A stretch of 32,000 bases of DNA from Candidatus Nanopusillus acidilobi (GCA_001552015.1 CP010514.1:60001-92000); one strand, 5' to 3'. Shown: positions 6,903 through 32,000, counted from the stretch's first letter. A program made the numbers and translations. Notes: a model not told the origin generated them from the sequence alone.

Positions 6903-6911
6903 TTTTTAATT

Positions 6912-8108
6912 ATGAAAATACTGTTTTTATCATGGGGAGTGTTTCCTCAAAAAGGTGGTGGATTAGAAAAAGTAACCTATTATTATTTAAAATATCTTGA
7001 TTATTTTAATAATAATGTTTATTTATTTATTTTAAACTTGACTGATGATGTAAAATCTTTTTGGGATAATAAATTAAAGAATTCAAAAATCTTTGGATTA
7101 AATATGAAATTATATCAGTCATATATAGATTATTTTAAATATGAATCTTTTACATTATACAAAAGAAAAATTATAGACTATAAAAGAGCAGTAATTGAAT
7201 ATAAAGATAGAATATTAGATATATTGAAGAAAATGAAATTAGATTTCGATATTATATATGCATATGATTGGTTAACTGCTTTAGCAGGTATAGAAATAAA
7301 GAAAATATACAAAAAACCACTGGTTGTTCATTTTCATTCTTTAGTATATGATAGAGTTGGAGGGAATCCTGATGTATTAAAATATTTATATGATTATGAT
7401 TATGGAATAGAGTTGGAAGCTTGTAAATATGCAGATAAAATTGTAGTAGTAAGTAAAAGGGAAAAGGATATATTGGTAAAATATTATAATTGTGATGAAA
7501 AGAAGATTGAGGTAATATATAATGCTCCAGATGATGATTTTAATATAAGAGAAAAAATAAATAGTAAAATAAAAGAGAAATATAAAATAGTATTATATCT
7601 TGGGAGAATGACAATGCATAAGGGTCCAGATTATTTATTAAGAGCAGCTAAAAAGGTTTTAGAAAAAAGGAAGGATATATTATTTATATTTGCAGGAACT
7701 GGAGAAATGTTGGAACAATTGATAAAAATGGCTGCAGATTTAAATATATCAAAAAATGTAATATTTACTGGATGGATTGATGATGATCTGGCAGAATATT
7801 TATATTCAATAGCAGATATATTTGTTTTACCATCTATATCAGAACCATTTGGTTTAACACCATTTGAAGCTTTAAAATATAAGGACTTTATTATAATATC
7901 AAAACAAACAGGAGTATATGAAGTATTAAAGAATGCATTGGCAGTTGATTTTTGGGATGTAAATAAAATGGCAGATTATATATTAGCATTATTATCTTAT
8001 CCAAGATTAGGAGAATTTGAGATAAAATTATGTTTGGATGATATAAAAAATTTATCTTGGAAAAATTCTGTAGAAAAATTAATTTCTATTTTCAATAGCC
8101 TGGTTTAA
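6912..8108 (+). CDS. GT-B glycosyltransferase (GT4/GT5), glycogen-synthase-like
   Basis: N-terminus MKILFLSW..FPQKGGGLEKV (K-GGL motif) and C-terminal PSISEPFGLTPFEALKY (E-x7-E region). Cluster context supports the call. Confidence 0.7.
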   Translation: MKILFLSWGVFPQKGGGLEKVTYYYLKYLDYFNNNVYLFILNLTDDVKSFWDNKLKNSKIFGLNMKLYQSYIDYFKYESFTLYKRKIIDYKRAVIEYKDRILDILKKMKLDFDIIYAYDWLTALAGIEIKKIYKKPLVVHFHSLVYDRVGGNPDVLKYLYDYDYGIELEACKYADKIVVVSKREKDILVKYYNCDEKKIEVIYNAPDDDFNIREKINSKIKEKYKIVLYLGRMTMHKGPDYLLRAAKKVLEKRKDILFIFAGTGEMLEQLIKMAADLNISKNVIFTGWIDDDLAEYLYSIADIFVLPSISEPFGLTPFEALKYKDFIIISKQTGVYEVLKNALAVDFWDVNKMADYILALLSYPRLGEFEIKLCLDDIKNLSWKNSVEKLISIFNSLV

Positions 8109-9254
8109 TTCTATATCTTTTAGAATATTCATATATGATATAAAAGAATCATATGGGGTTGCAAAAGCCTCTTCTCTAAAATATTTATGTACATCCCCAT
8201 CACTATTATATTTTAAACTCATATAATAGAAGTTATCTGAAGTTGATAGATATCTCAATATATTTAATGTTCTTTCATCATTCTTATATTTTTTATATAA
8301 TTCTCTCAAATAATCTAAAGCTTCTCTTTGTATACTATCCCCAATCCATGCAGACAAATCTCTCTCAATATCAGCCCATGATATTAATTCAGGAATATTT
8401 AATTCATCTTTATAATTAAATTCTTCTGTAGCTTCAGTTATATTATATGTTTCAAAATATTTTTCTTTTCCAATATATTCAAATAACTTATTCCAAAATT
8501 CAAATATTCCAGATTCTTTCCATATATGTTCTCCAATTGTTTCAAAGTCCATGAATATATTTATTATATCCCCTGGAGTATTCTTTAGCCATAAATAATA
8601 CTTATCTGCAGTTAATGGATATTCTGACCAATTCTTATTTGTAAATCTAAATCCTATATCATCAGATAATCTATAATTTCTTAATAATAATCTTAAATTG
8701 TTTATTTTTAATTTATATACATAATTTGGACTTCTATTTCCCAAAATTTTTTCAGTTCCTTCAGTTAATGCAACTTTATATCCTAAAGAATATATAATTT
8801 CTCCGATTTCATTGTTAAATACAAGTTCAAAGTTTCTGAAGCTTCTAGATTTATAATTAAATATTTCTTTTATTTTCTTTCTATGCAATTTTATTTGGTT
8901 AATAAATTCATCTTTATCAATTAAATATGCCAATGAATGATAGTAAGTTTCTGATACAATTTCTACATTTCCAGTATCTACCAATTTTTTCCATAATTCC
9001 AAAATTTCTGGATGATATAATTCTAATTGCTCAATTAATGTTCCAGAAATTGAAAATGATACTTTTATATCATATTTTGTAATATTATCATATATCATTT
9101 CTAATGCTGGTTTATAGCATTTATATACAACCCTATCTAATATTCTTTTATTTAGATCATCGTTGAAATAATTTTTTGATCCAATATCAAAAAAAGAATA
9201 ATATCTTATTCTTCTTGGTTGATGTGCATGGAAATAAAATACAATGCCTGTCAT
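8079..9254 (-). CDS. Glycoside hydrolase family 57 (alpha-amylase / alpha-glucan-acting enzyme)
   Basis: GH57 conserved regions are present: FYFHAHQPRR (HQP), GNVEIVSETYYHSL (nucleophile Glu region) and FMDFETIGEH (acid/base Asp region). Confidence 0.85.
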   Translation of the reverse strand: MTGIVFYFHAHQPRRIRYYSFFDIGSKNYFNDDLNKRILDRVVYKCYKPALEMIYDNITKYDIKVSFSISGTLIEQLELYHPEILELWKKLVDTGNVEIVSETYYHSLAYLIDKDEFINQIKLHRKKIKEIFNYKSRSFRNFELVFNNEIGEIIYSLGYKVALTEGTEKILGNRSPNYVYKLKINNLRLLLRNYRLSDDIGFRFTNKNWSEYPLTADKYYLWLKNTPGDIINIFMDFETIGEHIWKESGIFEFWNKLFEYIGKEKYFETYNITEATEEFNYKDELNIPELISWADIERDLSAWIGDSIQREALDYLRELYKKYKNDERTLNILRYLSTSDNFYYMSLKYNSDGDVHKYFREEAFATPYDSFISYMNILKDIELNQAIENRN

Positions 9255-9291
9255 AAATATTTTTTAAAGATATAACAATATAAAATTTAAT

Positions 9292-9606
9292 ATGATTGAA
9301 GTTGATGATGAAAAACAAGCATTTATCACTATTGATGGACAAAAATTATATGGTCTTCAAGATTTATTAATTTGGCTATACAATGCAGATCAAGATAAAT
9401 TTAATTATCATAAAAATCATTTTCCAGAATGGATAAAAAATTCATTAAAGGAGGAGGGATTGTATGAAAAGGTAAAGGAAGCAAAAGATAAGGACGAATA
9501 TATAAAAATAATAGGAAATTTCTTAAAAGCTCATGAAATATATGTAAAGAAAAAAATTTCAAAAGAAGAAGCTGAAGTAAAATTTTCAAAACTATTAGGA
9601 TTATGA
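9292..9606 (+). CDS. Small K/E-rich hypothetical protein, first gene of a 3-gene operon; possibly DUF5752-like (from memory, unverified)
   Basis: ATG start 38 nt from the divergent GH57 start. ATGA overlap with the downstream ParA/MinD gene. No motif I can assign firmly. Confidence 0.5.
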   Translation: MIEVDDEKQAFITIDGQKLYGLQDLLIWLYNADQDKFNYHKNHFPEWIKNSLKEEGLYEKVKEAKDKDEYIKIIGNFLKAHEIYVKKKISKEEAEVKFSKLLGL

Positions 9607-10265
9607 TAGTATCTTTTATATCATTAAAGGGTGGAGTTGGAAAAACTACATTGGCGAATAATCTCGCAGCATATTTAAAAAAGGAATATAATTATAAAGT
9701 ATTGATAATAGATACAAATGGGATTTATTCTTCGAATTTAATATTTCTAAATAATGAAAAATTCTTTGGAAATAAAATATATGAAGGAATAAAGATATTA
9801 CCATACTTTCATTTAAAAATTATAGATAATTTAGATTTTAGTATTAATGATCTAAATTATTTGAAAAGGTATTATGATGTAATTATTTTTGATGTACTTC
9901 CAAATATAAATTATATATTAAATATTGAGAAAATATCGGACATAAATTTTTTAGTAATAAATCCAGATTTCTATTCTTTATATGTAAATAAAAAATTATA
10001 TGATCTTTTAGATAAAAACAAAGTAAAAATAGTAGTAAATAAATATGATAAAAGTATTGAAATAGATTTTATAGAAGATGTATTTAATAAAGAAGTATAT
10101 ACAGTTATTCCAATAGTTAAAGATTTTATTAATTATCAACTCCAATATCAACCAATAGCATTTTATAACGAAAAGTCAAAAGCATTGAAATATATAGATG
10201 AATTAGCATATTGTATAACTGGAAATAAAAAGAAAAGAAGTATATTTGATATTATATTTAGATGA
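9603..10265 (+). CDS. ParA/MinD-family P-loop ATPase (deviant Walker A)
   Basis: SLKGGVGKTTLANNLAAYL (KGGxxGKT), LIIDTN and YDVIIFDVLP. 4-nt overlaps with both flanking genes. Confidence 0.85.
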   Translation: MIVSFISLKGGVGKTTLANNLAAYLKKEYNYKVLIIDTNGIYSSNLIFLNNEKFFGNKIYEGIKILPYFHLKIIDNLDFSINDLNYLKRYYDVIIFDVLPNINYILNIEKISDINFLVINPDFYSLYVNKKLYDLLDKNKVKIVVNKYDKSIEIDFIEDVFNKEVYTVIPIVKDFINYQLQYQPIAFYNEKSKALKYIDELAYCITGNKKKRSIFDIIFR

Positions 10266-11881
10266 TAATATTTGAACAATCTTGGGAAGTATGTAATAAA
10301 GTAGGGGGAATATATACTGTAATATCTACTAAAGCAAAATATATAAAAGAAAAATATAAGGATAAATATTTTTTGATTGGTCCATATAAAAATAATTCAG
10401 AATTTATTGAATTAGATCCTCCAAATTATATAAAAGAAATAAATTATCAATTAGATGGAATTAAGGTACATTATGGATATTGGAATATTGAATCAAAGCC
10501 AAATGTATTTCTAATAGAATTTGATGAATTTTTTAATAAAGAAAGAAATTTATGGAAATATAAATATTGGGAATGGTATAAAATAGATTCTTTAAATTCA
10601 GATTTTACGTTTGATGAGCCATTATTATGGTCGGTTGCTGTCGGTATATTTTTAGAAAAATTAGATAAATATTTTAATGAGAAAAAAATATTACATGCAC
10701 ATGAATGGTTATCTGGAGGTACAATATTATATATAAAGAAGAACAATCTAAATTATAAAACAATATTAACAATTCATGGAACAGTTATTGGAAGAGCATT
10801 ATCTGAAAAAAATGTAAATGTAGAAAATGCATTGAATATAATAGATCCTGATAAAGATTCATATAGATTAGGAATAAATTCAAAATATCAATTGGAAAAA
10901 CAGGCGATATTGAATTCAGATATATTTACAGTTGTATCTGATAATTTGGGAGAAGAAGCATATAAAATATATAAGAGAAAACCAGATTATATAACATATA
11001 ATTATATAAATGTAAAAGAAAAAGAATTATTTAATTATTATAAAATTTCAAAAAAATGGATAGATGAATTTTTAACTTGGTATTTTTATCCATATTATGA
11101 TTTACCAGAAAAATACTTACTAATATATACTATTGGTAGATATGAACCATATAATAAAGGTTTGGATTTATTTATTGATTTATTGAAATATTTAGATGAA
11201 AATAAATTAAATACTATTGCGTTTATTTTTGTTCCTTATAGTATTAAAGGACAAAATGATAATATAATTAGATCTTATAAAGAATATATTAAATTGAAGG
11301 AAAATATAGAAGAAAATATTCATTTAATTATTAGATCTTTATATAATGGAAAAAATATATTGGATAAGTTAGATAGAATAAAGAATAAAAATCCACCAAT
11401 ATGTACCCATGATGTAGAAAATAATATTATAATTGAAAAATTGAGAGAAAATAATTTAAATAATGATAAAAATAATTATGTAAAAGTTATATATGTTCCC
11501 GTTTATCTTGGAAATGATGTATTATTTAGTTTAGATACAGAATATATATTACCGGCATTTGATTTTGGTATATTTTTATCAAGATATGAACCTTATGGAT
11601 ATACACCATTAGAAGCATTGAATAATTTTGTTCCAATTGTTTTATCTAATAAAACTGGATTTTATAGAAATCTAATAAATAAAAATATAAGTCATGAATA
11701 TATAATCAGTGTAGATCCAAGTAATTTGGATAAAGAACTTATATATAATAAATTTTTGCAATATTATAATTTGGATTTATATGATAAAATGGAAATAAAA
11801 AAGCAAATGTATGAAATATCTAAGAAATTTGATTGGAAAAATAATATAAATGAATATATAAATATTTATGAATCTATGTAA
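10262..11881 (+). CDS. Glycogen synthase, GT3 (eukaryote-type) family
   Basis: The N-terminus FEQSWEVCNKVGGIYTVISTKA closely matches the GT3 glycogen synthase hallmark (FE.SWEVANKVGGIYTV..TKA). C-terminal EPYGYTPLEAL is also present. Confidence 0.85.
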   Translation: MIIFEQSWEVCNKVGGIYTVISTKAKYIKEKYKDKYFLIGPYKNNSEFIELDPPNYIKEINYQLDGIKVHYGYWNIESKPNVFLIEFDEFFNKERNLWKYKYWEWYKIDSLNSDFTFDEPLLWSVAVGIFLEKLDKYFNEKKILHAHEWLSGGTILYIKKNNLNYKTILTIHGTVIGRALSEKNVNVENALNIIDPDKDSYRLGINSKYQLEKQAILNSDIFTVVSDNLGEEAYKIYKRKPDYITYNYINVKEKELFNYYKISKKWIDEFLTWYFYPYYDLPEKYLLIYTIGRYEPYNKGLDLFIDLLKYLDENKLNTIAFIFVPYSIKGQNDNIIRSYKEYIKLKENIEENIHLIIRSLYNGKNILDKLDRIKNKNPPICTHDVENNIIIEKLRENNLNNDKNNYVKVIYVPVYLGNDVLFSLDTEYILPAFDFGIFLSRYEPYGYTPLEALNNFVPIVLSNKTGFYRNLINKNISHEYIISVDPSNLDKELIYNKFLQYYNLDLYDKMEIKKQMYEISKKFDWKNNINEYINIYESM

Positions 11882-13966: not shown

Positions 13967-14245
13967 TTAAGATATATTTAAAAAAGATTTTGCACTTTTT
14001 AATGTTTTAAATATTTTAAAATTTTTTATATTTTGTAAATATAATAAAAAGATTATTTTATACAAATGTTTTTTATTTATAGACAAAATTATTCTTTTAT
14101 TTATTTCTATTTTATTCAAATGTAAATCATAATAATTTATATATCCAAAATATTTAATAAAATCATTTTTTAATTTTTCTTCATCAAAAAAATCTAATAA
14201 GATATATCTATTTTTAATTTTTAATGCCTTTGGTAATATTACCAT
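13967..14245 (-). CDS. Probable RNase P protein component 2 (Pop5-like), unusually short at 92 aa
   Basis: The N-terminus LPKALKIKNRYILLDF resembles the Pop5 start (LPPxLRxxxRYIxFE). It occupies the Pop5 slot upstream of psmA-SBDS. The sequence is highly diverged. Confidence 0.5.
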   Translation of the reverse strand: MVILPKALKIKNRYILLDFFDEEKLKNDFIKYFGYINYYDLHLNKIEINKRIILSINKKHLYKIIFLLYLQNIKNFKIFKTLKSAKSFLNIS

Positions 14246-15165
14246 TCCTCAACATTGTTCATTTTTGCTTCAATATCTTTAAGATTTAATTTTTCTAACA
14301 TTTCCTTATATCTATTTCTTATTGTAACTTCAGTTATTCCAGCAACTTCTGCTATATCTTTTTGTGTCTTCTGTATTCCATGTTTTACGCATGCTAAATA
14401 TATTGCAGCTGCTGCAACTCCTGCTGGACCTCTACCTGCAGTTATATCGGATTCTTTTGCTTTATTAACTATTTCTATTGCAGTAGATACTACTTCTGGT
14501 GGTAGGTTTAATAATGATGAAAATCTATGTACGTATTCTGTAACATCTATTGGTTGTATTTTTATCTTTAATGCTTGTAATAAGTGCTTATATGTTCTTC
14601 CCAATTCTTTTTTATGTATATTTGATGCTTTAACTATTTCATCTATTGTTCTTGCAACATCATGTATTCTACATGCTATATATGTGCATGCAGCAATAAC
14701 AGTTTCTACAGATCTTCCTCTAATTAATCCCTTTTCAACAGCATCTAGATATAATTTTAATGCTGTTTCTTCTACCTGTTTTGGTAATTGCAGGAATGAA
14801 GAAATCCTCTTTAATTCCTGTTGTGCTAATTTTAGATTTCTTTCATATGAACTTGTAGATCTTTGCTGCCATTTTTTAAGTTTTCTAGATAATGCAATAT
14901 CCTCATCTTTTGATTCTGCTTTTCCAATTTCTGTCGATATCATACTTGGTATATTTGTATATCTCATTGCACTACCTGTTCTTGATAATTTTTCTGCATC
15001 TTCTGAATTTATTGTTCTATATTCCTTTCCCAAATATGGAACTTCTTCAATTACATATCCACATTTTGCACATACTAATTCTGCTGTTTTCTCATTGTAT
15101 ATAAATTCTGTACTTCCACATATTGGACATTTCAATTCAGGATTTTTTATAAGCTTTTGGACCAT
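14239..15165 (-). CDS. tfb: Transcription initiation factor IIB (TFB)
   Basis: N-terminal Zn ribbon CPICGSTEFIYNEKTAELVCAKCGYV followed by two cyclin-fold repeats (RGRSVETVIAACTYIACR, GRGPAGVAAAAIYLAC). Confidence 0.95.
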   Translation of the reverse strand: MVQKLIKNPELKCPICGSTEFIYNEKTAELVCAKCGYVIEEVPYLGKEYRTINSEDAEKLSRTGSAMRYTNIPSMISTEIGKAESKDEDIALSRKLKKWQQRSTSSYERNLKLAQQELKRISSFLQLPKQVEETALKLYLDAVEKGLIRGRSVETVIAACTYIACRIHDVARTIDEIVKASNIHKKELGRTYKHLLQALKIKIQPIDVTEYVHRFSSLLNLPPEVVSTAIEIVNKAKESDITAGRGPAGVAAAAIYLACVKHGIQKTQKDIAEVAGITEVTIRNRYKEMLEKLNLKDIEAKMNNVEEW

Positions 15166-15186
15166 AATAAATTTTTAAATATTATG

Positions 15187-18153: not shown

Positions 18154-21100
18154 ATGAAAAAGATATATTTATTATCATTTCTTTTATTTTTCTTATATTC
18201 AATTTTTTCTCAAGGATATAATATATGGCATTCAGAATCTTTATATAAACCAGTAACATTTTTAAGTATAAATTTATCAAGCAATAATTTATCTGTAGGT
18301 CAAACATTATATTATAACGTTTATATAAATTATAGAGATATTTATTATATACCAAATGCATCATTAGTAATACAAATAATACAAAAAAATGATAATAATA
18401 ATATTTATCCATTTCAATTTACCTCAGATAATGAGGTATATGAATATGTAATAAAAAATATATATTTACAACCGGGAGAATCATTAAATATGCCATTAAA
18501 TTATACAATTCCAGATAATTTACCTTCTGGATATTATTATATTGTTGTTTATTTATATACACCTTTAAGTGAAATAGATGGTTTACCATTTATATATTAT
18601 CCAGGAGTATATCAAGAATTTTATATATATAATCCAAATAATGTTCCAGAAATTTATATTGTAAAAAATGATACATATTTAAGTTCTCCTGCTTTATATA
18701 CATGGGGTAGTTTATTATCTTCATCAGGATATTATTATTCTTCATTAAGTGGACCTTCTGGATATGGTGTTTCAAATTATATTAATTTAACAGTTGGTAT
18801 ATATTCAAGTATAAATACAAATGCTACATTGAATATTTTAATATCTCCATGGGATGATATTTTATATAATCCAGTATACAATTATACTGAAGATATACAA
18901 TTAAATGAGGGATATAATATAATAAATATTCCATATATAAATGTTGCAACATTGAATCCAAATGCTTATTCATTAAAAATAACTTTATTATATAATAATC
19001 AAACAGAATCAATATATAGGTTAAGATTTATTGTTTTAGGTCCAACAACAAGGTTGGATGGTGTTTATTTACAAGGTAATGGAAATTTAACATTTATAGT
19101 AGCTCCATCTCCTGATCATTATACATATCCAGTTACTCCGAATGTAGTAGCAGAAGTTTATTCAAATACATTGGGATTTAATGAAAATATATATTTAGGA
19201 AATATAAGCTGGAATAGTACGCAATTTACTTATGTGAATTTACAATTACCATTGAATTCTACTAGCTTTGATTTATGTATAAATCTATATTCTAATAATA
19301 ATTTAGATTACGGATATTGTACATATTATATTATAAATCAATCAAATACTTATGGAATTCCATTAAATAATTTAATTTATGTAAATTATACAAATAATTA
19401 CTTCTATATATGTTCAAATATTTCTGGAATATTAAATATAGGATATAATTCTGAATCAAATGTAATATATACTGGAAATATAAATAATAATTGTTTAAAT
19501 TATACATTAGGGAATGGAGTTTATTATATTTCTTTCTATTCATCTCAATATTCAAATCTATGGATAATAAACAACACAATAATACAAAATAATATAAGTA
19601 TAACTAAAACTCAGCCAATAAGTAGTGTAAAAAGTTATTATAATTATACAAACTATTATTATTTAATAATATTAATAATTTTAATTGCAATAATATTATT
19701 TATGATATTGAGAAAGAAAAAATTATTTATCCTTTCATTAGTTTTATTACCACTATTATTTAATATACATTCTCAGGAACTATATCTAAGTTCAAATCAG
19801 ATATGTACGCCTTCAGATTCGTTAAATATAACAACACAAGGATTTAGTGGATTAGTAAATGTTTCTTATATATTTTATAATTCATCAAATCTTTCACAAA
19901 TTTTTGCAATTGGTAATTATAGTTATTTAGGTGACAATATATCCATTTATAATTATACTGTATATTTCAATAATTTAACATTAAATTTATCAAATAACAT
20001 AAATTCTACAATAATGGATTATAATATAACTGTTCAAAATTGTACATTAATTTCTTGTGATCAATATAATTATAATGGTTCAATATATCTAAATTATCCA
20101 TATTATTTTGAATATTATACAAATCCAATATATCAAGGATCTGATGATGCAGCACAAATAATCCCAGGTTGTCCTTCTTCAAATAACTTATTAAATAATA
20201 CATATTTTAACTTTACATTAGTTTTACCAAATGGAACAAGTATTATTACTAGAACAAACTGTCCTGGATCTGGGGATCCAGATTGGGGTCAGAATTTATG
20301 TGATCTATATGTAAGTAATTATGATACTAATACTGGAAATTATACATATTATGGAGAATATTATTACAATAATGTTTCATTTAATCAATCATTTATTAAT
20401 AATCCATTACAAATATTAGTAGCAAGTTCTGGAGAATTTACTAATCAATCATGTTCCCATGCATGGACACTAACAAGTACTAGTTCAAATCCTCTATCTA
20501 TAAGTTTCTCATATTATGGACCATATTCAGGAACATATTATACATATTATAATGGAATATATGTTTTAGCGCAAAATACTTCTGTAGGATTTAATGTAAA
20601 TGGTGGATATAACTGGTTGTGTAGTGATGGTAATACAAATACTAGTATACCTCCTGTTGCTGCTTGGTTATATAGTTCGAATCAATATTATAACCCAGAT
20701 TCATTTGCGTATGTACAAGGTATATCAAATTTACCATTCAACTTCACACAATATAATATAGATAGAAATGCTGTTTATAATATATATTCAAATGAGGGAT
20801 TATTAATTCCAGAAAGTTTTCCTCATGGTCCTTTTGGTAATTCTTACTTTACTTTATATAATTTTAGTGATAATGCAGGTTATTATGTAATATATCAAGA
20901 TTATTTAAAAACAATATGTAATAATCCATCAAATTATATATGTGATGCAAATGGAACTTTGTGTAATATTGGTCATATAGTAGGACAGGCAGAAGGATGG
21001 TTACCAATATCTCCAGAGCCAGGATATTATTTATTAGTAATAAATCCAAATGCTACTGTATATTTGCAAAATTTAACATATTATCCATATATTTATAATA

Positions 21101-22407
21101 TAAATCCTGGTGATGCAATTTATATTGGTAATATAACAAATGTTGGAATTGGAAATCTTACAATAAATATAAATTGGTCTCTTCCAAATGATCCAAATAG
21201 TAGTTTCTTATTACAGGAACAACAAATTTCTCCATTATATATTTATTTCCCAACAAATCTATGTCTACATCAAGATTGTACAGTAAATTATAGTGTAACA
21301 TATCAGAATTCATATGGATTAACAGTATATAGTCCTGTAACATATTATGGATATGTAAATATTAACTGGGATACATTAAATATATATACTAATCCATCAT
21401 TAACACAAGTAACATATGGACAACCTTCATATATAACATTAGCAGTACAAAATACAGGACCAGTACCTGCTGAAAATATATCTGTACAAAATGTATATTA
21501 TAATTCAAATTGTATACAAGTATTAAATACTGGAGGTCAAATAAATTCATTAAATACAAATCAAGTAGGTTACTTAAATGTAGAAATTAATATAACAAAT
21601 CCATATTGTTCTCCACAGGATTATAATATAACATTTACAGTTTATGGATGGAATACATACGTATATAATTATTCAATAATATTACCAATAAGTTATATAA
21701 TTTCTCCACCAAATGGAGCACAATTGCAATCAATAACAACATTTAATATAGTAGATGAGAATGCACAAACATGTTATATAATATTTAATGGAGCACAATT
21801 CTCTAGAAATTGTAATTCAGATTTCACATATCAGCAATCCATGTGTGCAGGATCATTATGTAATACTCAAATTCAATCAATAAATAATTATGCAAAATTC
21901 TATGAAAATTATGTATACTATAATTATTTAACTAATCAATCATCAATAATAGGAATAGCAATTGCATCAAATATAATAAGTTTATATGTTGGACAAGAGT
22001 ATATATATCCTGTCTTAATAAAGAATTTAGTACCAACAAATATTCAATGTTCTTTAGTACCAGTTCCATCAACTACAAATAATAAAGCAATTGTTACCAA
22101 TTATAGTATAAATGGAATAAGCAGTAATAATTTTGTTATAGGTCCTTATGGATCTTCAGAATTAGATATAAATATTTTAGGAACTTCTAGTGGTATAAGT
22201 AGTTTATTATATGGTGTAGTATGTAATTCTACATATGGTTCCTCTTCATTTAGTACTCAAGTTCCGATATATGTATTTGGGCCAAATAATTTAATAGCAA
22301 ACTATACTCAATCTCAAATAATAGTATCTGAGAAAATATCTCCAACAGGTTTAATTGGAATTGGAGGTTTAATAATAGGTTTATTAGCTTTGTTTAATAT
22401 AATCTAA
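18154..22407 (+). CDS. Giant (1417 aa) N/Y/S/T-rich surface protein with a signal peptide, an internal TM-RKKK-signal-like hairpin and a C-terminal TM anchor
   Basis: N-terminal signal MKKIYLLSFLLFFLYSIFSQG, dense N-x-S/T sequons, and C-terminal anchor TGLIGIGGLIIGLLALFNII. All antisense mini-ORFs are low-complexity shadows. Confidence 0.75.
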   Translation: MKKIYLLSFLLFFLYSIFSQGYNIWHSESLYKPVTFLSINLSSNNLSVGQTLYYNVYINYRDIYYIPNASLVIQIIQKNDNNNIYPFQFTSDNEVYEYVIKNIYLQPGESLNMPLNYTIPDNLPSGYYYIVVYLYTPLSEIDGLPFIYYPGVYQEFYIYNPNNVPEIYIVKNDTYLSSPALYTWGSLLSSSGYYYSSLSGPSGYGVSNYINLTVGIYSSINTNATLNILISPWDDILYNPVYNYTEDIQLNEGYNIINIPYINVATLNPNAYSLKITLLYNNQTESIYRLRFIVLGPTTRLDGVYLQGNGNLTFIVAPSPDHYTYPVTPNVVAEVYSNTLGFNENIYLGNISWNSTQFTYVNLQLPLNSTSFDLCINLYSNNNLDYGYCTYYIINQSNTYGIPLNNLIYVNYTNNYFYICSNISGILNIGYNSESNVIYTGNINNNCLNYTLGNGVYYISFYSSQYSNLWIINNTIIQNNISITKTQPISSVKSYYNYTNYYYLIILIILIAIILFMILRKKKLFILSLVLLPLLFNIHSQELYLSSNQICTPSDSLNITTQGFSGLVNVSYIFYNSSNLSQIFAIGNYSYLGDNISIYNYTVYFNNLTLNLSNNINSTIMDYNITVQNCTLISCDQYNYNGSIYLNYPYYFEYYTNPIYQGSDDAAQIIPGCPSSNNLLNNTYFNFTLVLPNGTSIITRTNCPGSGDPDWGQNLCDLYVSNYDTNTGNYTYYGEYYYNNVSFNQSFINNPLQILVASSGEFTNQSCSHAWTLTSTSSNPLSISFSYYGPYSGTYYTYYNGIYVLAQNTSVGFNVNGGYNWLCSDGNTNTSIPPVAAWLYSSNQYYNPDSFAYVQGISNLPFNFTQYNIDRNAVYNIYSNEGLLIPESFPHGPFGNSYFTLYNFSDNAGYYVIYQDYLKTICNNPSNYICDANGTLCNIGHIVGQAEGWLPISPEPGYYLLVINPNATVYLQNLTYYPYIYNINPGDAIYIGNITNVGIGNLTININWSLPNDPNSSFLLQEQQISPLYIYFPTNLCLHQDCTVNYSVTYQNSYGLTVYSPVTYYGYVNINWDTLNIYTNPSLTQVTYGQPSYITLAVQNTGPVPAENISVQNVYYNSNCIQVLNTGGQINSLNTNQVGYLNVEINITNPYCSPQDYNITFTVYGWNTYVYNYSIILPISYIISPPNGAQLQSITTFNIVDENAQTCYIIFNGAQFSRNCNSDFTYQQSMCAGSLCNTQIQSINNYAKFYENYVYYNYLTNQSSIIGIAIASNIISLYVGQEYIYPVLIKNLVPTNIQCSLVPVPSTTNNKAIVTNYSINGISSNNFVIGPYGSSELDINILGTSSGISSLLYGVVCNSTYGSSSFSTQVPIYVFGPNNLIANYTQSQIIVSEKISPTGLIGIGGLIIGLLALFNII

Positions 22408-25482: not shown

Positions 25483-26553
25483 TTAAATATGATTTTTATA
25501 TATGGAATGTATATAAATTATTACTAATCCTATAATTGCTAATATTAGTAAGTTTATTGAAAATAAAATTATGAATAAAGGAAAATTAATTAAAATTCCT
25601 TGATAAATATAGTAGAAATAATTTACGAAATTCATTAATATAAATGGTATTCCTGAAACAATTCCCAAAATTATTTTTTTACTGTCTGGAAACCTATGAT
25701 ATAAATATGCGTGAATTGCGGTAAAGAAAAATAAAAACATGATTATAATATTTTGAATAATATAAATTATATTGATTTTTGTTAAGAAAAATAGAATTGT
25801 AAAGAAGATAAATAGAAATATTATTAATATTAAAATATACATTGTGAACCCTTCTGGCTTATTATCAAATATTCTTTTAATCATAATCATTAAAATAAAT
25901 TCCAATATTGAGAATAAGGATATAATAAATAATATTAAAATATTTTGAACAATTAAAGAAAGTATTAACTGTATAGATAAAAAAAGAGAAATTATGGAGA
26001 AGATAGTTTGTTTATATTTGTTTAAAAAATTTAATGAACTTAAATGATATATTTTTTTATCATCTAAATTGAATAAAAATCCTAGAAGGGATATAAAAAA
26101 TAGAGAATAAATATTTATAATATTATATAATGTTATATATAAAACATATATTAGAGAAACTATTAATATTATTATTTGTTTTCTATTTATAGATAATTTA
26201 TTCTCTGCGACAAAATTTCCAAAGAAATAAAATAAAATAAATGAAAAAAATACATAAACAAAATATTTAAGTAAAATATTATTAAAAATATTTAATATAG
26301 GTAATAAAAAAATTAATAAATATAAAATTTTTATCATATTGAATTTTGTGTTTTTCAAGAAATAATATAAAACAAATAAGTAAAATATTCCAAATAAGAT
26401 ATAATATAAATTTGTAAAAAATAATATAGATATTGGGAATATTATTAAATATAATATAAGTATATGTTTATTGATATTTTTGTTTTCGTCAATTAATCTA
26501 TCTATGATAGTTTCGCCCATTATATATAGAAATTCATTAAAACTTTTATGCAA
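25483..26553 (-). CDS. Polytopic membrane protein, paralog of 28477-29577
   Basis: About 10 hydrophobic segments. Collinear motifs are shared with the 366-aa protein (NKYKQTIFSIISLFLSIQLIL and FLFFFTAIHAYLYHRFPDSKKIILGIVSGI). 8-nt overlap with the upstream gene. Confidence 0.6.
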   Translation of the reverse strand: MHKSFNEFLYIMGETIIDRLIDENKNINKHILILYLIIFPISILFFTNLYYILFGIFYLFVLYYFLKNTKFNMIKILYLLIFLLPILNIFNNILLKYFVYVFFSFILFYFFGNFVAENKLSINRKQIIILIVSLIYVLYITLYNIINIYSLFFISLLGFLFNLDDKKIYHLSSLNFLNKYKQTIFSIISLFLSIQLILSLIVQNILILFIISLFSILEFILMIMIKRIFDNKPEGFTMYILILIIFLFIFFTILFFLTKINIIYIIQNIIIMFLFFFTAIHAYLYHRFPDSKKIILGIVSGIPFILMNFVNYFYYIYQGILINFPLFIILFSINLLILAIIGLVIIYIHSIYKNHI

Positions 26554-27193
26554 TTCTAAAATATGTTTGATTAATTCTTTCTAAATATACTGTTGCAAAT
26601 TGATAAAAAGTAATATTATTTATTGAATAACATGGTATATAATTACATATGATATTTCCATTTGTATTTTCTGTACATGTTATATTTCCAGATAAATTTG
26701 TTGGGAATAAAAATACAAATGTTTGATTTGATGTATTTTCATTACTTAAACAGAAACTATATAAAAAATAATAGAAATCTGAATAATAATTTTTGCATAT
26801 TGTTAATTTAATATAATCTAAAGAATAATATATGGAAATCGGATATATATATGTATTACAATTTCCATTAAAGTTTATTATTCCAAAACTATAATTATCT
26901 ATTTCTGCTCTAAATGTATAAGGAAATATTGTACAATTTGGAAGTTCATTATAATATGTTTGATTAAATTGTTCTATTTTATCTAGAGTTGTAAAATATA
27001 TTGGATAATTTGGATATCCTAAACAATTTGGGGAAAATAGATCATATATTATTTCTTGTTCATATGAAAAAGAAGTTTGTTCTTTATAATTTGTTAAATT
27101 TATATTGGAAAATATAGCTAATAAAATTATCATTCCAACTAAAAATAATACTGTTAATATTGTTATAAATATGATAGATAGTTGTTCTTTCAT
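26546..27193 (-). CDS. N-terminally anchored, Cys-containing ectodomain protein (215 aa)
   Basis: N-terminus MKEQLSIIFITILTVLFLVGMIILLAIF. 8 Cys by hand count, plus sequons. Confidence 0.6.
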   Translation of the reverse strand: MKEQLSIIFITILTVLFLVGMIILLAIFSNINLTNYKEQTSFSYEQEIIYDLFSPNCLGYPNYPIYFTTLDKIEQFNQTYYNELPNCTIFPYTFRAEIDNYSFGIINFNGNCNTYIYPISIYYSLDYIKLTICKNYYSDFYYFLYSFCLSNENTSNQTFVFLFPTNLSGNITCTENTNGNIICNYIPCYSINNITFYQFATVYLERINQTYFRIA

Positions 27194-27238
27194 TTTATAG
27201 TAATTTTATATAATAAATATATTTTTTGTTTTTCTTTT

Positions 27239-28480
27239 TCATTGTTGTTGAGTATTCTGTTGTATACATTCAGATGGAAATGATATTGTTGCTGGGCATT
27301 GATAAGGACATTCTCCAGGTAAACAAGCAGGACATTGGTGTCCACCAATTATGCAAGTATAGCAATTAACTTGAATTGAATAATAGTATTGAAATGCAAA
27401 TATTTCTTCTGAATTTTGTTGAGTTGTACTTACACTGCCGCACTCATTCTGAAGGGGAGAACAAGAATATTGTTGATTTTCTAATGTACAACTTTGAGAT
27501 ATTATTTGATTACTTGTTAAATTATATGTTTCAATACAATTATATGTACAATTTAAATAATATTGATTTGTTATATTTTCATAAAAAACTATAGAAGTAA
27601 TTGTTATAGTTTGAGGATAAGTATTACCATTATAATATACATTGTATTGATTATCAGAGCATTTTAATATTACTTTACATGCAATTCCCTGTGGATTTGA
27701 ACATATTTGACATAATGGAATATTTATACATTGATATGGAATTATTGTTTCATTACATTGAATATATGGATTATTTGAAAATTGTTCAAACTCCTGCGCA
27801 CATGTATAGGTTGGATTATTATTTAATGTATTTGAGCAATCTTGATATGAACATTCTGAAAATTCCCCATTTTGGGAAAATTGATATGCTAAGTTATATA
27901 AATAGAATGCTGGATTATTTGTTATATTTGATGTAACTGAATATGGAATTATTGAACCTGAAGAAGGACCTGTAATATTTATATATAATCCTTGAACATA
28001 AACGGGAAAACTATAATTATATTCTCCGGAAGCTATATCGCTACAATCTCCAAGAATTCCTGCTTGATAGTTATTTGAAAAATTGAAGGATATGTTATAA
28101 GGATAATAATATTGATATGCAGACAAATATTGTTCTCCAAAACTTAATAAAGTTTCAAATCCTGAAGTTAGCAAATTGTTATAATATTGAATTGCATTTT
28201 GACACGATTGTGGTAATATACATCCATAAGGATAGGAAGCCCATTCTTCTTCTCCCCATCCATTAGTTCCTGCTATATATGACTCTACATAACCTTCTTG
28301 TGTTAATGCTGTTTGTAAATATCCTAAAAAATAATTTGATAATGTAGATAAAGAAGTAAATCTATTAAAAACAATATTTTGATTGTAATTATATGTTAAT
28401 GCATAAAAAGATAAAAGAATTATTAATATTGCAATTGTTAAAAATAAAACTACATAAACAGTTTCTAATTGATTTCTCAT
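27239..28480 (-). CDS. N-terminally anchored, Cys-rich ectodomain protein (413 aa)
   Basis: N-terminus MRNQLETVYVVLFLTIAILIILLSFYAL. 24 Cys by hand count, including the C-terminal CYTCIIGGHQCPACLPGECPYQCP. Confidence 0.7.
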   Translation of the reverse strand: MRNQLETVYVVLFLTIAILIILLSFYALTYNYNQNIVFNRFTSLSTLSNYFLGYLQTALTQEGYVESYIAGTNGWGEEEWASYPYGCILPQSCQNAIQYYNNLLTSGFETLLSFGEQYLSAYQYYYPYNISFNFSNNYQAGILGDCSDIASGEYNYSFPVYVQGLYINITGPSSGSIIPYSVTSNITNNPAFYLYNLAYQFSQNGEFSECSYQDCSNTLNNNPTYTCAQEFEQFSNNPYIQCNETIIPYQCINIPLCQICSNPQGIACKVILKCSDNQYNVYYNGNTYPQTITITSIVFYENITNQYYLNCTYNCIETYNLTSNQIISQSCTLENQQYSCSPLQNECGSVSTTQQNSEEIFAFQYYYSIQVNCYTCIIGGHQCPACLPGECPYQCPATISFPSECIQQNTQQQ

Positions 28481-29577
28481 ATTTTTAATTTAATATGTAA
28501 ATATATAAATGTTAAGATAAGAATTGGCGTTACAAATCCATGTATAATTCCAAGTGCAATTAATATATTTGGTATAGATATTAAATGTATACTACTTGGC
28601 CCTCCAAATAATACAGATTCAAGGAATTCTCCAGTTATATTTTGTATTAGAACTAATATTCCGATTGTAATACCCAATGCTTTTGTTATTATTCTTTTAC
28701 TATTTCTATATATTTCATAATGGATTCCCATAAAGAAAAATAATAAAGCAATTAAATATCTAGTATGTAAAGCTGCAGAAATAATATCCACATTTGATAA
28801 ATATAGTTCTCCGAAAAATATTATTAAAACCATAGTAAAAAGTAAGAAATAATTTGTTGGAACATTATATCTTAAATTTCTATAAACTAAAAAGTAAATA
28901 ATAAATTCATATATTGATAAAAAAATTAATGATTCATATGCATATATATAATATTTTCCAACTGAGCTTTCTATAATTAAATTATTATAAAATGATAATT
29001 TATATATGGCAATAATAATTTGTAATATTATAATAAGGAATATTAATAGAAATACATACTTTTTGTATTTATAGATTTCTGATATCTTCTTGAATATATT
29101 TGTTCTTACTATTAGTATTTCATTGCTATTAAAATACATAACTAGAAATAGAAATATGGCAAAAATAATAAATAGGGATGAATAGAGTATCTCAAAAGTA
29201 TAAAGATGAAAATATGCAAAGGTAAGGAATAAACCCGATATATATCCCATAACTACGTCTAGATCTGTAGTTGCAGAATTATATATTAATTCAAGGAAAA
29301 ATAATATTATAAATAATATTATTGAGATTATATAAAATATTAATGATTTTCTTGAAATATATAAATTGTTTTCAAATAAATAATATCCCATAGAAAATGC
29401 TATAAAATAAAATACCCAATAATTTACCATATAAGTAAATATTGATGGAAATGGAAAAGGTAAAGGTAAATTAGTATAAATTCCAAAAATTCCAATTGGT
29501 ATATATAATGGAAATATTAATTTATATATTAAAGATGTATTCTTTGAATTTTTTAATATAAAAGATAATAAGAACAA
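28477..29577 (-). CDS. Polytopic membrane protein, paralog of 25483-26553
   Basis: About 10 hydrophobic segments. Motifs YKYKKYVFLLIFLIIILQIII and LLFFFMGIHYEIYRNSKRIITKALGITIGI. TTG start is uncertain. 4-nt overlap with the downstream gene. Confidence 0.6.
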   Translation of the reverse strand: MFLLSFILKNSKNTSLIYKLIFPLYIPIGIFGIYTNLPLPFPFPSIFTYMVNYWVFYFIAFSMGYYLFENNLYISRKSLIFYIISIILFIILFFLELIYNSATTDLDVVMGYISGLFLTFAYFHLYTFEILYSSLFIIFAIFLFLVMYFNSNEILIVRTNIFKKISEIYKYKKYVFLLIFLIIILQIIIAIYKLSFYNNLIIESSVGKYYIYAYESLIFLSIYEFIIYFLVYRNLRYNVPTNYFLLFTMVLIIFFGELYLSNVDIISAALHTRYLIALLFFFMGIHYEIYRNSKRIITKALGITIGILVLIQNITGEFLESVLFGGPSSIHLISIPNILIALGIIHGFVTPILILTFIYLHIKLKI

Positions 29578-29680
29578 ATATATTGTACCAAAAATAATTA
29601 TATTAATATTAAAGTTGCTAATGTAAATAAAAATTAAAAATAATATTAAATATAAAAGAAATAAAATTTTATCTTCTTTT

Positions 29681-31330
29681 TTACCATACTGTTAATTTAG
29701 CAACCAAATATCCGCCTAAGAATGGTACATCTACTGGTAAATATATATAATAAACATATGTATTTGTATTTGGTGGTATTGGATATCCTAGACTTATGAA
29801 TTCTCCACTACCCTGATAAATGTATGCATTTAATTCTTCTTTATTTCCAGTGTTTGTAATACAATATACTCTTGCCATTGCAACGCCATTTCCTCCGGGA
29901 TGAGGATCATAATATACTGCAGAAATTATAAATTGATTTGTATTTGGATCTCTATCATCTATTACCCATTTAGTAATATTAAATCTATAAAATCCTTCAG
30001 TATTTTTATTAATATCTCCTAAGTAAACTAAAGGACATTCTTTTCCAACAATAATTCCATTTACATTTTGTATATTATCATATACACCAGTTGGGCAATT
30101 TATTGTATCTCCGTTTAAATTATATTCACAGAAAGGATCTGCTGCTAAGAATACATAATCTGGTTCTCCGCTTGTATTTAAAAATGAAATATATAATCTT
30201 ATTACCTCATGCCATGGATAATCAATGAATACTTGCTGACAATTTGGTGGTATATCTACTACACCTCTATAAAATGCTCCAACAATTAATTCCTGATTAC
30301 CCGGATTAGCCTGATTACCTTCGCAAAGAGAATTGCCTATATAATATGTACCAAATTCTTCTTGGCATGCTTCATTTAAATATTGTTGTGGGATTATAAA
30401 TTCTGCTAATCTATTTATATCAGTAGCAGTTCTATAAATAGGAGGACCTTGATAATAATAAGGTATAGATGTTAGATATTGATTATAAGTTTCAGGGCAT
30501 TGTTCTGTATTATAAATACATAAATATCCGGAAAAGAAATTAGGCAAACTAGAGTTAGGTTGTGCTGGCGTACTATCTCCGCCTATATAATTTGGAAATA
30601 AATTCCATTCATCCTGTGGACAATATACAGAAGCGTTTGTAAAATTATAATTTGGAAATATTTCCGTTAATGGCGTACAGTATCCATTTTGTACGGCTTG
30701 AGATTGAGATAGATCATTATATAATGCTGGTAAGCCCCATAAACTTACTGACGCAGATTGATGAAATGGCGCTGTTGCATTTACCCATCCTGCTCCATAT
30801 AAAGTTTGACTTACCGGTATATTAATATTTTCTGTATAATTATTTACAAAGAAATATGTATAATTCCATTCATACCATTGTGTACCGTCAGGATCCGGTG
30901 GAGGATTCATTGAACAAGGATCCCAATTTCCAATATTACCAGCTACTATAAACATTTGAACAATCCATCCTGTTACTGGTGGGATAAAATATATTGTAAG
31001 GTTCCATCTATTTCCATATATATTATCAAAGTAATTTATCAAATCTTCTGATATGTTTGTACATGTATTTTGATTTATACAATATGTATCATTTCCAGAA
31101 GATGAAAAATATGATAATAAAAATGCATAGGATAAATTAACATTATTGTCATAAATATATGGTAATAAATCAAGGCTATTTTGAATTGTTAATGTATATT
31201 GATTTTCTACATTATATGTTTGTGTTATTTTAGAGTTAGAGCTAGTAGTTAATAGATAAACTAAAAGAATTGATAAAATTATTATTGAAATAATAATAAC
31301 AAATGTTAATGTATTTATCTGATTTTTCAT
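29681..31330 (-). CDS. N-terminally anchored, Cys-containing large ectodomain protein (549 aa)
   Basis: N-terminus MKNQINTLTFVIIISIIILSILLVYLL. 14 Cys by hand count. ATGA overlap with the upstream gene. Confidence 0.7.
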   Translation of the reverse strand: MKNQINTLTFVIIISIIILSILLVYLLTTSSNSKITQTYNVENQYTLTIQNSLDLLPYIYDNNVNLSYAFLLSYFSSSGNDTYCINQNTCTNISEDLINYFDNIYGNRWNLTIYFIPPVTGWIVQMFIVAGNIGNWDPCSMNPPPDPDGTQWYEWNYTYFFVNNYTENINIPVSQTLYGAGWVNATAPFHQSASVSLWGLPALYNDLSQSQAVQNGYCTPLTEIFPNYNFTNASVYCPQDEWNLFPNYIGGDSTPAQPNSSLPNFFSGYLCIYNTEQCPETYNQYLTSIPYYYQGPPIYRTATDINRLAEFIIPQQYLNEACQEEFGTYYIGNSLCEGNQANPGNQELIVGAFYRGVVDIPPNCQQVFIDYPWHEVIRLYISFLNTSGEPDYVFLAADPFCEYNLNGDTINCPTGVYDNIQNVNGIIVGKECPLVYLGDINKNTEGFYRFNITKWVIDDRDPNTNQFIISAVYYDPHPGGNGVAMARVYCITNTGNKEELNAYIYQGSGEFISLGYPIPPNTNTYVYYIYLPVDVPFLGGYLVAKLTVW

Positions 31331-32000
31331 TTTAGATAATATAAAAGTATAATTAGGCCTATTATTATAATTACTATTACTATTGCTGCTGGCAAAATCA
31401 AATTGACGTTATTTATTTTATTACTTACATTTGGTTGTGGATAAATTAATTGTTGGGTACTATTTGTTAAATTTACTTCAGTTTGATTTATGCATTCAAA
31501 TACTCCTGTACATGATATATATACAATATTTGGTGGTGGACATTGCTGTAAAAATTCTTGATATAACTGATTTAATGAATAATTATATGGACATCTAAAC
31601 CAATCTCCTTCAAAAGATAAGTTTTCTGGGCAATATCCGCATTGATATTCTATTTTATATACATTCAATACTGATTGATATGATTCATTATTTGTTAAAT
31701 AAGATTGAGGTATATATGGAGGATTAAAACATGGATAAATCTGATTTGAACATGGTTGATAATACCATGGTGTATTTGAACAATTTAGTAAACTATTACA
31801 TAATGTTGGTACAGGTATAATTATGTCTTGATATGCTGATGGAGGAATTAATGCATATGGACTAACTAATGTTCCATTTGGATATTCGCAATAACTACTA
31901 TTTACATATATTAATCCATAATGGGCGCAAAAAGAATATTGGGGTGATACATTATTTTCATAATATTGTAAAGCATTAAAGTATGTACCATTTATAATAC
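31327..32000 (-). CDS. Cys-rich protein with a C-terminal TM anchor; 5'-truncated by the window edge
   Basis: The track start at 31668 is a TTG. My hand translation of the same frame is open from nt 31998 (IINGTYFNALQYYENNVSPQYSFCAHYGLIYVNSSYCEYPNG...). C-terminal anchor LILPAAIVIVIIIIGLIILLYYLK. Confidence 0.65.
   Translation of the reverse strand, partial: IINGTYFNALQYYENNVSPQYSFCAHYGLIYVNSSYCEYPNGTLVSPYALIPPSAYQDIIIPVPTLCNSLLNCSNTPWYYQPCSNQIYPCFNPPYIPQSYLTNNESYQSVLNVYKIEYQCGYCPENLSFEGDWFRCPYNYSLNQLYQEFLQQCPPPNIVYISCTGVFECINQTEVNLTNSTQQLIYPQPNVSNKINNVNLILPAAIVIVIIIIGLIILLYYLK

Follow-up and report, generated by a model that had tools for sequence, protein, structure and literature searches.

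The type-IV-filament (TFF) machines of archaea are assembled from a recognizable set of parts. In described loci (Epd/system 1; subsystem 4A; Makarova 2016; Sivabalasarma & Albers 2026), a T2SSF/TadC platform gene is followed by genes for small and large N-anchored proteins that bear short basic leaders. Nanoarchaeota are thought to possess two type IV pilus systems and an archaellum (PMC6142677), and Makarova et al. noted both nanoarchaeal ATPases without identifiable cognate pilins and two nanoarchaea without an A24 prepilin peptidase. Further, cryo-electron tomography of strain YN1 and Nanobdella aerobiophila has revealed a cone and a portal, the latter traversed by an intercellular filament of ~6.6 nm; the component proteins were stated to be unknown (PMC11420986; also PMC11104419). 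Here, we describe six minus-strand open reading frames (ORFs), Nps_00465 to Nps_00490, at positions 25483-32000 of a 32,000-nt stretch of the Candidatus Nanopusillus acidilobi genome (CP010514.1:60001-92000; hereafter, “the window”). They are genes 8-13, the distal end, of a conserved operon of 12-13 genes that is specific to the Nanopusillaceae. We put at roughly 0.6 the probability that this operon encodes a derived, archaeal pilus-like TFF machine for display or adhesion, with its ATPase encoded elsewhere in the genome.

The six ORFs are listed as “uncharacterized” and without an arCOG in the published N. acidilobi gene table, and none of the six products has a match in Pfam or NCBIfam. An initial annotation of the window had recorded their sizes, the 24 Cys of one product, their N- or C-terminal anchors and the lack of an assignable family, all of which the coordinates and the domain searches bear out; the sixth frame is open to the window edge. 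The extent of the gene set was settled by comparison with loci from relatives (labelled L001-L017). In nine relatives, the window genes form the distal part of a single co-directional string of overlapping genes that lies between DUF371 and a convergent arginase gene. The proximal part of the string encodes, in order, a 253-aa N-anchored protein, a 656-aa polytopic protein, four small proteins of 94, 159, 137 and 146 aa, and a 509-aa N-anchored Peptidase_C1 protein. The distal part encodes a C-anchored Cys-rich protein, a 552-aa protein, a membrane protein that we call memB, proteins of 412 and 215 aa and, where present, a second membrane protein, memA. In a tblastn survey, the order of genes 1-12 was the same in all complete loci, with identities ranging from 96% to 25%. 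This order, with overlaps of 4-8 nt, extends over Nanopusillus metagenome-assembled genomes (MAGs), Nst1, Nanobdella aerobiophila, YN1 and two more distant Nanopusillaceae. In N. acidilobi itself, the published gene table continues beyond base 32000 with Nps_00495 (Peptidase C1A), and includes Nps_00520 (nine transmembrane (TM) helices, arCOG01814) and Nps_00525. Thus, the operon start that had been sought beyond base 32000 places the window at the tail of a longer operon. The proposal of a lineage-specific, conserved surface gene set in a reduced symbiont has held up, with linkage in Nanopusillus, Nanobsidianus, Nanobdella, YN1 and other Nanopusillaceae. The statement that no ATPase or pilus components are present is accurate within the window; just past base 32000, however, lie the platform and pilin-like genes.

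The platform is the component that ties the operon to the TFF systems. The 656-aa protein has no direct match in Pfam or NCBIfam, and a profile search of the Protein Data Bank (PDB) with it returned only noise. A profile search, on the other hand, matched it to DPANN proteins of 675-681 aa at E-values of 5e-64 and 1e-55, and these proteins exceed the Pfam T2SSF threshold (36.6 and 26.5 bits vs 25.2). At the level of profile similarity, the 656-aa protein is shown to be a divergent T2SSF/TadC/FlaJ platform. In all of the relatives, its gene lies upstream of those of the window, at a distance of five to six genes. Two distant homologs were examined in their contigs: one is T2SSF-positive, and the other is from Aenigmarchaeota (E 2e-56, with its own T2SSF score below threshold). 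In both contigs, the platform gene directly follows that of a 757-758-aa T2SSE ATPase and is itself followed by 11-14 single-anchor genes with canonical KG leaders, including some for large proteins with 12-18 Cys. Neither contig encodes a polytopic protein in this locus, nor any membrane protein like memA or memB. The DPANN loci and the Nanopusillaceae operon share an architecture, the latter being without an ATPase in cis and having gained memB. Four ATPases of the FlaI/VirB11 type (arCOG01817) are encoded elsewhere in the N. acidilobi genome.

The N-anchored proteins are the candidate filament subunits. The product of the first operon gene (253 aa) has a canonical class III site, with MKRRG, MGKRS or MKKRA immediately before IDMAVQL; position -1 varies among small residues only. 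All ten N-anchored families have a [KR]-x-[Q/I/L/D] leader ahead of a helix of ~22-25 hydrophobic residues. In the families other than that of the first gene, the three N-anchored window proteins among them, the leader is 3-6 residues long and ends in [KR]-x. Q (occasionally I, L, D or E) comes next, frequently with an acidic or polar residue two to four positions further on, and then the hydrophobic helix. The leader of the 549-aa window protein is MKNQ, followed by a 25-residue hydrophobic helix, and its orthologs have M[KR][NSA][QD]; the 413-aa protein begins with MRNQLE and the 215-aa protein with MKEQLS. None of the Pfam pilin models reaches threshold in any of these proteins, and the 137-aa family gives a recurrent sub-threshold match to Flp1_like.

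Several observations weigh against a TFF machine and deserve a full airing. Across ten loci, neither the operon nor the flanking sequence encodes an ATPase of the T2SSE/FlaI/VirB11 kind. The locus contains no class III signal peptidase, and PF01478 matches none of the operon proteins. The platform gene is outside of the window, and it is tied to N. acidilobi only by the published gene table (Nps_00520, arCOG01814) and by synteny. The accessory proteins match no known pilin family, and when hidden Markov models (HMMs) of the ten accessory families were run against the accessory genes of the related DPANN loci that have an ATPase and a platform, no homologs emerged. According to published data, the products of the operon, those of the six window ORFs included, were not detected in the N. 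acidilobi proteome. Finally, the M[KR]xQ leaders of the window proteins have N, E, V, Y or L (also S, A or G) at position -1. The A24 peptidases require G, A or S at this position. Because the residue is not limited to these three, cleavage by a classical A24 enzyme is doubtful. The window proteins could be plain signal-anchor proteins, and their cleavage and incorporation into a filament are putative.

This last point can be widened to the supposition that the N-anchored proteins are ordinary surface glycoproteins, either signal-anchored (type II) or Sec-cleaved, and that their adjacency to a platform gene has no mechanistic meaning. Leaders that do not fit the canonical class III motif and the lack of a pilin match at threshold are what such an explanation predicts, and nanoarchaeal genomes are rich in N-anchored glycoproteins, with others in the window too. 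We nevertheless regard it as unlikely. The order of these genes and their translational coupling with the platform and pilin-like genes are strictly conserved across genera, and the Q/E-type pattern at positions +1 to +5 after the basic residue is also conserved. Moreover, the succession of a platform and many N-anchored proteins, some of them large and Cys-rich, recurs in the bona fide DPANN ATPase-platform loci.

The two membrane proteins of the operon are encoded at 28477-29687 (memB, Nps_00480) and 25483-26520 (memA, Nps_00465, 345 aa), both on the minus strand. The initial annotation called them paralogs. BLASTP between the two detects no similarity (E 14). Alignment of their profiles with hhalign, in contrast, gives a probability of 98% (E 1.8e-13) over 277 collinear columns, whereas control comparisons with reversed alignments, with another polytopic protein of the window and with the platform protein stay at or below 0.3%. 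In the divergent locus L014, memA cross-matches the memB gene by tblastn at E 3e-6. Motifs such as G..(F/A)EN..(S/I).(R/K)K and FFFxxIHxxLY..SKK...GIxxGI are collinear in both alignments. The profile evidence shows memA and memB to be true but distant paralogs. An HMMER search of 1.84 billion representatives with a merged profile retrieved 11 proteins only, each a member of the memA/memB family. When 185,579 species genomes were scanned, the family turned up only in Nanopusillus, Nanobsidianus and Nanopusillaceae, and exact-sequence look-ups extended it to Nanobdella aerobiophila and strain YN1. No Pfam match was obtained even at E<=10 in 16 members, and a PDB profile search with the family gave only noise. 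The AlphaFold2 (AF2) model of memB (pLDDT 69.8, pTM 0.68) has 12 TM helices; a manual topology places both termini inside and satisfies the positive-inside rule at every loop. A Foldseek comparison of this model with the PDB yielded no match (best E 0.19, TM-score <=0.25), and an internal 6+6 repeat was looked for in memB and not found. By these searches, memA and memB make up an orphan family of predicted 12-TM proteins that is restricted to the Nanopusillaceae and previously undescribed. With no match in Pfam, NCBIfam, the PDB or Foldseek, the paralogs have not been drawn into any housekeeping family.

The pattern of conservation in memB has two faces. Seven residues that are invariant in both paralogs (E106, K114, S122, H323, G339, G343 and H398) are predicted to lie at the cytoplasmic face. 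Those conserved in memB only (D142, D301, H308-R310, E354 and E357) are predicted to lie at the outer face, and conserved polar residues also occur within helices (Q223, E261 and H383). The outer half of the protein is more variable than the inner half (entropy 0.71 vs 0.43, p 2e-6).

Several known membrane-protein families were considered for memA and memB and rejected. Both proteins are cysteine-free in nearly all members, which excludes DsbB/VKOR-type oxidoreductase chemistry (there being no redox-active Cys pairs) and archaeosortase/exosortase-type chemistry alike. In the latter case, the C-terminal anchor of the neighboring protein also lacks a PGF/PEF motif, and no NCBIfam match was found. 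A24 prepilin peptidases are excluded by the lack of a conserved Asp pair; no Asp is invariant across the paralogs, and PF01478 does not match. For GT-C glycosyltransferases and oligosaccharyltransferases of the O-antigen-ligase type, a PMT_2, Wzy_C or STT3 HMM match together with a matching fold was not found. The hhalign control showed no relation to the T2SSF platform.

The relationship between the membrane proteins and their neighbors bears on the architecture of the system. The initial annotation saw ectodomain genes followed by a membrane gene, twice over, and concluded that two duplicated modules form a self-contained surface system, each ectodomain set having a dedicated polytopic partner. 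The membrane proteins are indeed genuine paralogs of an orphan family, and within the window each membrane gene does come after ectodomain genes. The second membrane gene, however, is missing from many relatives. memB was found in every complete locus, and the membrane family co-occurs with Cys-rich neighbors in all of these. memA is present in the window and in L001, L002, L007, L009 (Nst1) and L017 (YN1), its carriers including Nanobdella, and is absent from L003, L005, L008, L010, L012 and L014, that is, from six of the 11 complete loci. There, the genes for the 413- and 215-aa proteins are retained and the latter abuts the arginase gene, which contradicts the idea of memA as their dedicated partner. 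Further, hhalign comparisons of all ectodomain families against one another revealed no paralogy beyond the N-terminal helix, meaning that the ectodomain proteins of the two supposed modules are not duplicates. Last, the overlaps join these genes to a larger operon, headed by a pilin-like gene and the T2SSF gene, which the window edge cuts. A self-contained pair of modules is thus highly unlikely. We instead view memB as a core, lineage-specific membrane subunit or enzyme and memA as a dispensable paralog.

The distal end varies within and between genomes. MAG DS.bin.8 has two versions of the locus, one with memA (L007) and one without it (L008), which points to a strain-level presence/absence polymorphism of memA. 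In Nanobsidianus stetteri Nst1_C7 (L009, 11206-18368), an inversion right after memB has flipped a block comprising the genes for the 412-aa protein, the 215-aa protein, memA, arginase and UDG. This inversion splits the operon, and the distal genes can therefore be expressed separately.

What, then, might memB do? One candidate activity is N-terminal processing. Under this proposal, memB and memA would be a new, non-aspartyl class III signal peptidase or similar enzyme that cuts M[KR]xQ leaders between the x and the Q on the cytoplasmic side, in place of A24. The gap that such an enzyme would fill appears real: in addition to the two nanoarchaea that Makarova et al. report as lacking A24, none is listed for N. 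acidilobi, and ArlK/FlaK is missing from the published gene lists of Nanobdella and YN1. The invariant E106, K114, S122, H323 and H398 are all predicted at the cytoplasmic face, the residue at -1 of the leaders is not confined to small ones, implying another specificity, and the related DPANN loci with canonical KG leaders have no such membrane protein. The argument is nonetheless one of guilt by association. The family resembles no protease family or fold, and memB evolves fast (63% identity vs 92% for the platform). The family was not found outside of the Nanopusillaceae, leaving archaellin processing in other nanoarchaea unexplained, and the first operon gene retains its canonical small-residue site. 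That memB is a new non-A24 enzyme for these leaders is the boldest claim that we entertain and the one to which we give the least credence. The analysis does sharpen a puzzle in those nanoarchaea that have no recognizable A24 peptidase, namely by what enzyme, if by any, their pilin and archaellin precursors are processed.

Alternatively, memB and memA could be secondary transporters or flippases, for example for the uptake of host metabolites or lipids at the contact site. Twelve TM helices with both termini inside, very short loops, a topology that fits the positive-inside rule and the polar residues conserved within helices (Q223, E261 and H383) would all suit a transporter, and nanoarchaea rely on host lipids and metabolites (PMC4935971). 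Yet no Pfam transporter matches at E<=10, the 6+6 repeat is missing, and Foldseek finds no transporter fold (E 0.19, TM-score <=0.25). memB is translationally coupled to pilin-like genes on either side, which speaks for a function shared with them, and we deem a transporter decidedly unlikely.

The remaining window genes encode exposed glycoproteins. Nps_00490 (31327-32000, minus strand) is present as its 3' part, 223 codons in an open frame to the window edge. It encodes the Cys-rich, C-terminally anchored protein; full-length orthologs have 270-298 aa and an N-terminal Sec-type signal, and those in L001, L002, L003, L014 and L017 always have 14 Cys. This protein has a weak DUF333-like motif, NPxAVYC..GG, for which DUF333 itself matches below threshold (E 5e-4 to 1e-2). 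YN1 (L017, AP031373) carries two additional genes (141 and 172 aa; 7522-8478) between the C-anchored gene and that for the 510-aa protein, and the 172-aa product also has the weak DUF333-like motif of the C-anchored protein; the 146-aa gene is apparently absent from this strain. Nps_00485 (29681-31330, minus strand) encodes the 549-aa protein, with 14 Cys and 12 N-glycosylation sequons. Its orthologs, found in all of the loci, are 43-85% identical to it, and a single-sequence AF2 model (pLDDT 35.7) is unusable except for the N-terminal helix. Nps_00475 (27239-28480, minus strand) encodes the 413-aa protein, with 24 Cys (22-24 in all orthologs) and nine sequons, and Nps_00470 (26546-27193, minus strand) encodes the 215-aa protein, with ten sequons and eight Cys, a number that is the same in all seven orthologs. 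The three N-anchored proteins thus have 9-12 sequons each. For the 549- and 413-aa families, profile searches of the PDB yielded noise alone, and neither family has a Pfam or NCBIfam match.

The Cys content of these proteins is informative. Among the window and L001-L017, the number of Cys is even in all 47 of the 47 non-protease ectodomain orthologs and odd in five of the five C1 proteases. This parity indicates complete disulfide pairing in the former and one additional, free catalytic Cys in the latter. The protease, the gene of which lies beyond the window, matches PF00112 with 66.8 bits (threshold, 20.7 bits) and contains the motifs CGDCWAF, GHAMLLVGY and NEWG. It is a papain-like C1 protease with a pilin-like anchor and is probably active at the cell surface. 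In L010, the distal genes (those for the protease, the 549-aa protein, memB and the 413-aa protein) are 59-74% identical to their counterparts, compared to 92% for the platform. This faster divergence fits exposed, host-facing functions, and it agrees with the published excess of non-synonymous single-nucleotide polymorphisms in nanoarchaeal surface proteins and in a FlaJ/TadC gene (PMC6142677).

How could such a machine operate? The N-terminal helices of the three N-anchored window proteins would place them in the membrane. Assembly would be primed by the platform and a trans-encoded ATPase, using the 253-aa pilin and the four small pilin-like proteins. In a short fiber, the protease and the large glycoproteins could then be displayed at the tip or along its length; alternatively, they could be held at the cell surface in the manner of a bindosome. 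The ectodomains may be envisioned as N-glycosylated modules whose cysteines are all disulfide-bonded, which suits an acidic hot spring, probably acting with the protease in host adhesion or in breaching of the host envelope. memB would be the core lineage-specific membrane component, whether as an assembly or anchoring partner, a non-A24 processing enzyme or a transporter, and memA would be its optional paralog.

The gene boundaries in the window required some revision. The 4-nt overlaps at 31327-31330 and 28477-28480 were verified. The 8-nt overlap and the gap ahead of the 366-aa ORF that were part of the initial annotation do not stand, owing to the choice of start codon and to a frameshift, respectively. 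The 366-aa ORF (28477-29577) begins with TTG, whereas its 77 homologs are mostly 400-403 aa long with the N-terminus MVKKEDK. The window ATG that matches this start is at 29687-29685, and it overlaps the stop of the 549-aa gene. DNA alignment with L001, L002 and L003 located the frameshift at memB codons 3-5, in a minus-strand homopolymer (29677-29682) that is A6 in the window and A7 in the relatives. The shorter tract breaks the memB frame, and the 103-nt “gap” is therefore an artifact; the 366-aa ORF is a 403-aa gene disrupted by a 1-nt deletion in the A-run. Either a sequencing error or a tract prone to slippage, and possibly to phase variation, near the 5' end of this surface-system gene could account for the A6. 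Over 345 aa, the 356-aa ORF matches the deposited N. acidilobi protein Nps_00465 with 100% identity; that protein, like its Nanobdella ortholog, begins at the ATG at 26520. This ATG is most likely the true start, giving 345 aa; since the 8-nt overlap depends on a TTG start, it is replaced by a 25-nt gap. A scan for bacterial promoters and terminators was uninformative (79 sites vs 80 expected).

Elsewhere, the window (~22% G+C) contains archaeal housekeeping genes for TFB, the proteasome alpha subunit and the archaeal Lon. A 307-aa ORF at 14255-15178 (plus strand) is exactly antisense to the TFB gene (14239-15165, minus strand) and is almost certainly a spurious shadow ORF. A glycogen/glycan cluster at 5256-11881 comprises glycogen-debranching-like, glycosyltransferase, alpha-amylase-like, ParA-like and glycogen synthase genes and fits the stress that published work on N. 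acidilobi lays on gluconeogenesis and glycosylation. The product of 18154-22407 (plus strand), a surface protein of 1417 aa that is rich in Asn and Tyr, carries a hydrophobic anchor in its interior, then a basic stretch and another signal-like segment (LIILIILIAIILFMILRKKKLFILSLVLLPLLF); it looks like a fusion of two surface proteins. Counterparts of 1404-1461 aa are found beside the operon region in L001, L002, L003 and L017. Three more anchored, sequon-rich surface proteins are encoded at 390-1412 (plus strand), 2284-2916 (minus strand) and 3030-4115 (minus strand). The 210-aa one of these begins with MKSVKIYLIG, a short basic leader followed by a long helix as in the operon proteins.

For the way in which nanoarchaea and other ectosymbiotic DPANN archaea take hold of their hosts and get through the host envelope, the operon offers a concrete, conserved candidate of 12-13 genes. 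The candidate locus combines a TFF platform core, a probably active surface protease, fast-evolving disulfide-rich glycoproteins and an orphan membrane family. The complete operon is present in both organisms in which the attachment organelle has been imaged, Nanobdella aerobiophila and YN1. In the literature searched, we found no description of the operon, no proteins assigned to the organelle and no report of the organelle in N. acidilobi. It is tempting to suggest that the operon codes for the machinery behind the filament and portal of the attachment organelle of Nanobdellota, with memB as its lineage-specific membrane core. The suggestion is possible but doubtful: the link is drawn from gene presence, and the cone is far larger than a pilus machine.

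Comparison with better-known systems shows where the operon is conventional and where it departs from precedent. It shares with the archaeal TFF loci a platform that precedes N-anchored proteins, both small and large, whose leaders are short and basic. Also in common are a major-pilin-like first gene bearing a canonical class III site and a linked surface peptidase. Unlike those loci, the operon has neither a cis ATPase nor A24, most of its leaders have a non-small residue at -1, and a single 656-aa platform takes the place of two. Further, its pilin-like proteins match no pilin arCOG or Pfam family, and the 12-TM memB and memA have been reported in no described TFF locus. The A24 peptidases (PibD/FlaK/EppA) resemble memA and memB in being polytopic proteins encoded with pilin genes (EppA in the Epd locus), and the conserved polar residues of memA and memB are likewise placed at the cytoplasmic face. 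In contrast to those enzymes, memA and memB have no PF01478 match, conserved Asp pair or GxGD motif, and they have 12 TM helices instead of five or nine.

Two systems that assemble pilin-like proteins with large cargo provide analogies. In the bacterial minor-pilin and tip-adhesin sets (FimU-PilVWX-PilY1; GspH-I-J-K; TadE/F/G), as in the operon, four small pilin-like genes precede large pilin-like or adhesin genes. These sets belong to another domain of life, and the likeness is one of analogy, with no sequence or fold relation seen. Still, this gene layout suits a priming or tip complex for the presentation of big ectodomains. The Sulfolobus bindosome (Bas) differs in that the operon cargo does not consist of substrate-binding proteins and that the operon has no ABC transporter and no BasE-type ATPase; no homology between the two was detected. 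Yet the bindosome also displays large globular ectodomains on a pilin-like N-terminal helix and needs a TFF core and small pilin-like proteins to do so. For the 549-, 413- and 215-aa proteins, and for the protease as well, it is the best functional analogy. Set against these systems, the framework of the operon appears to be the familiar one of the TFF systems, and what is new is the 12-TM family, a lineage-specific membrane component without detectable relatives.

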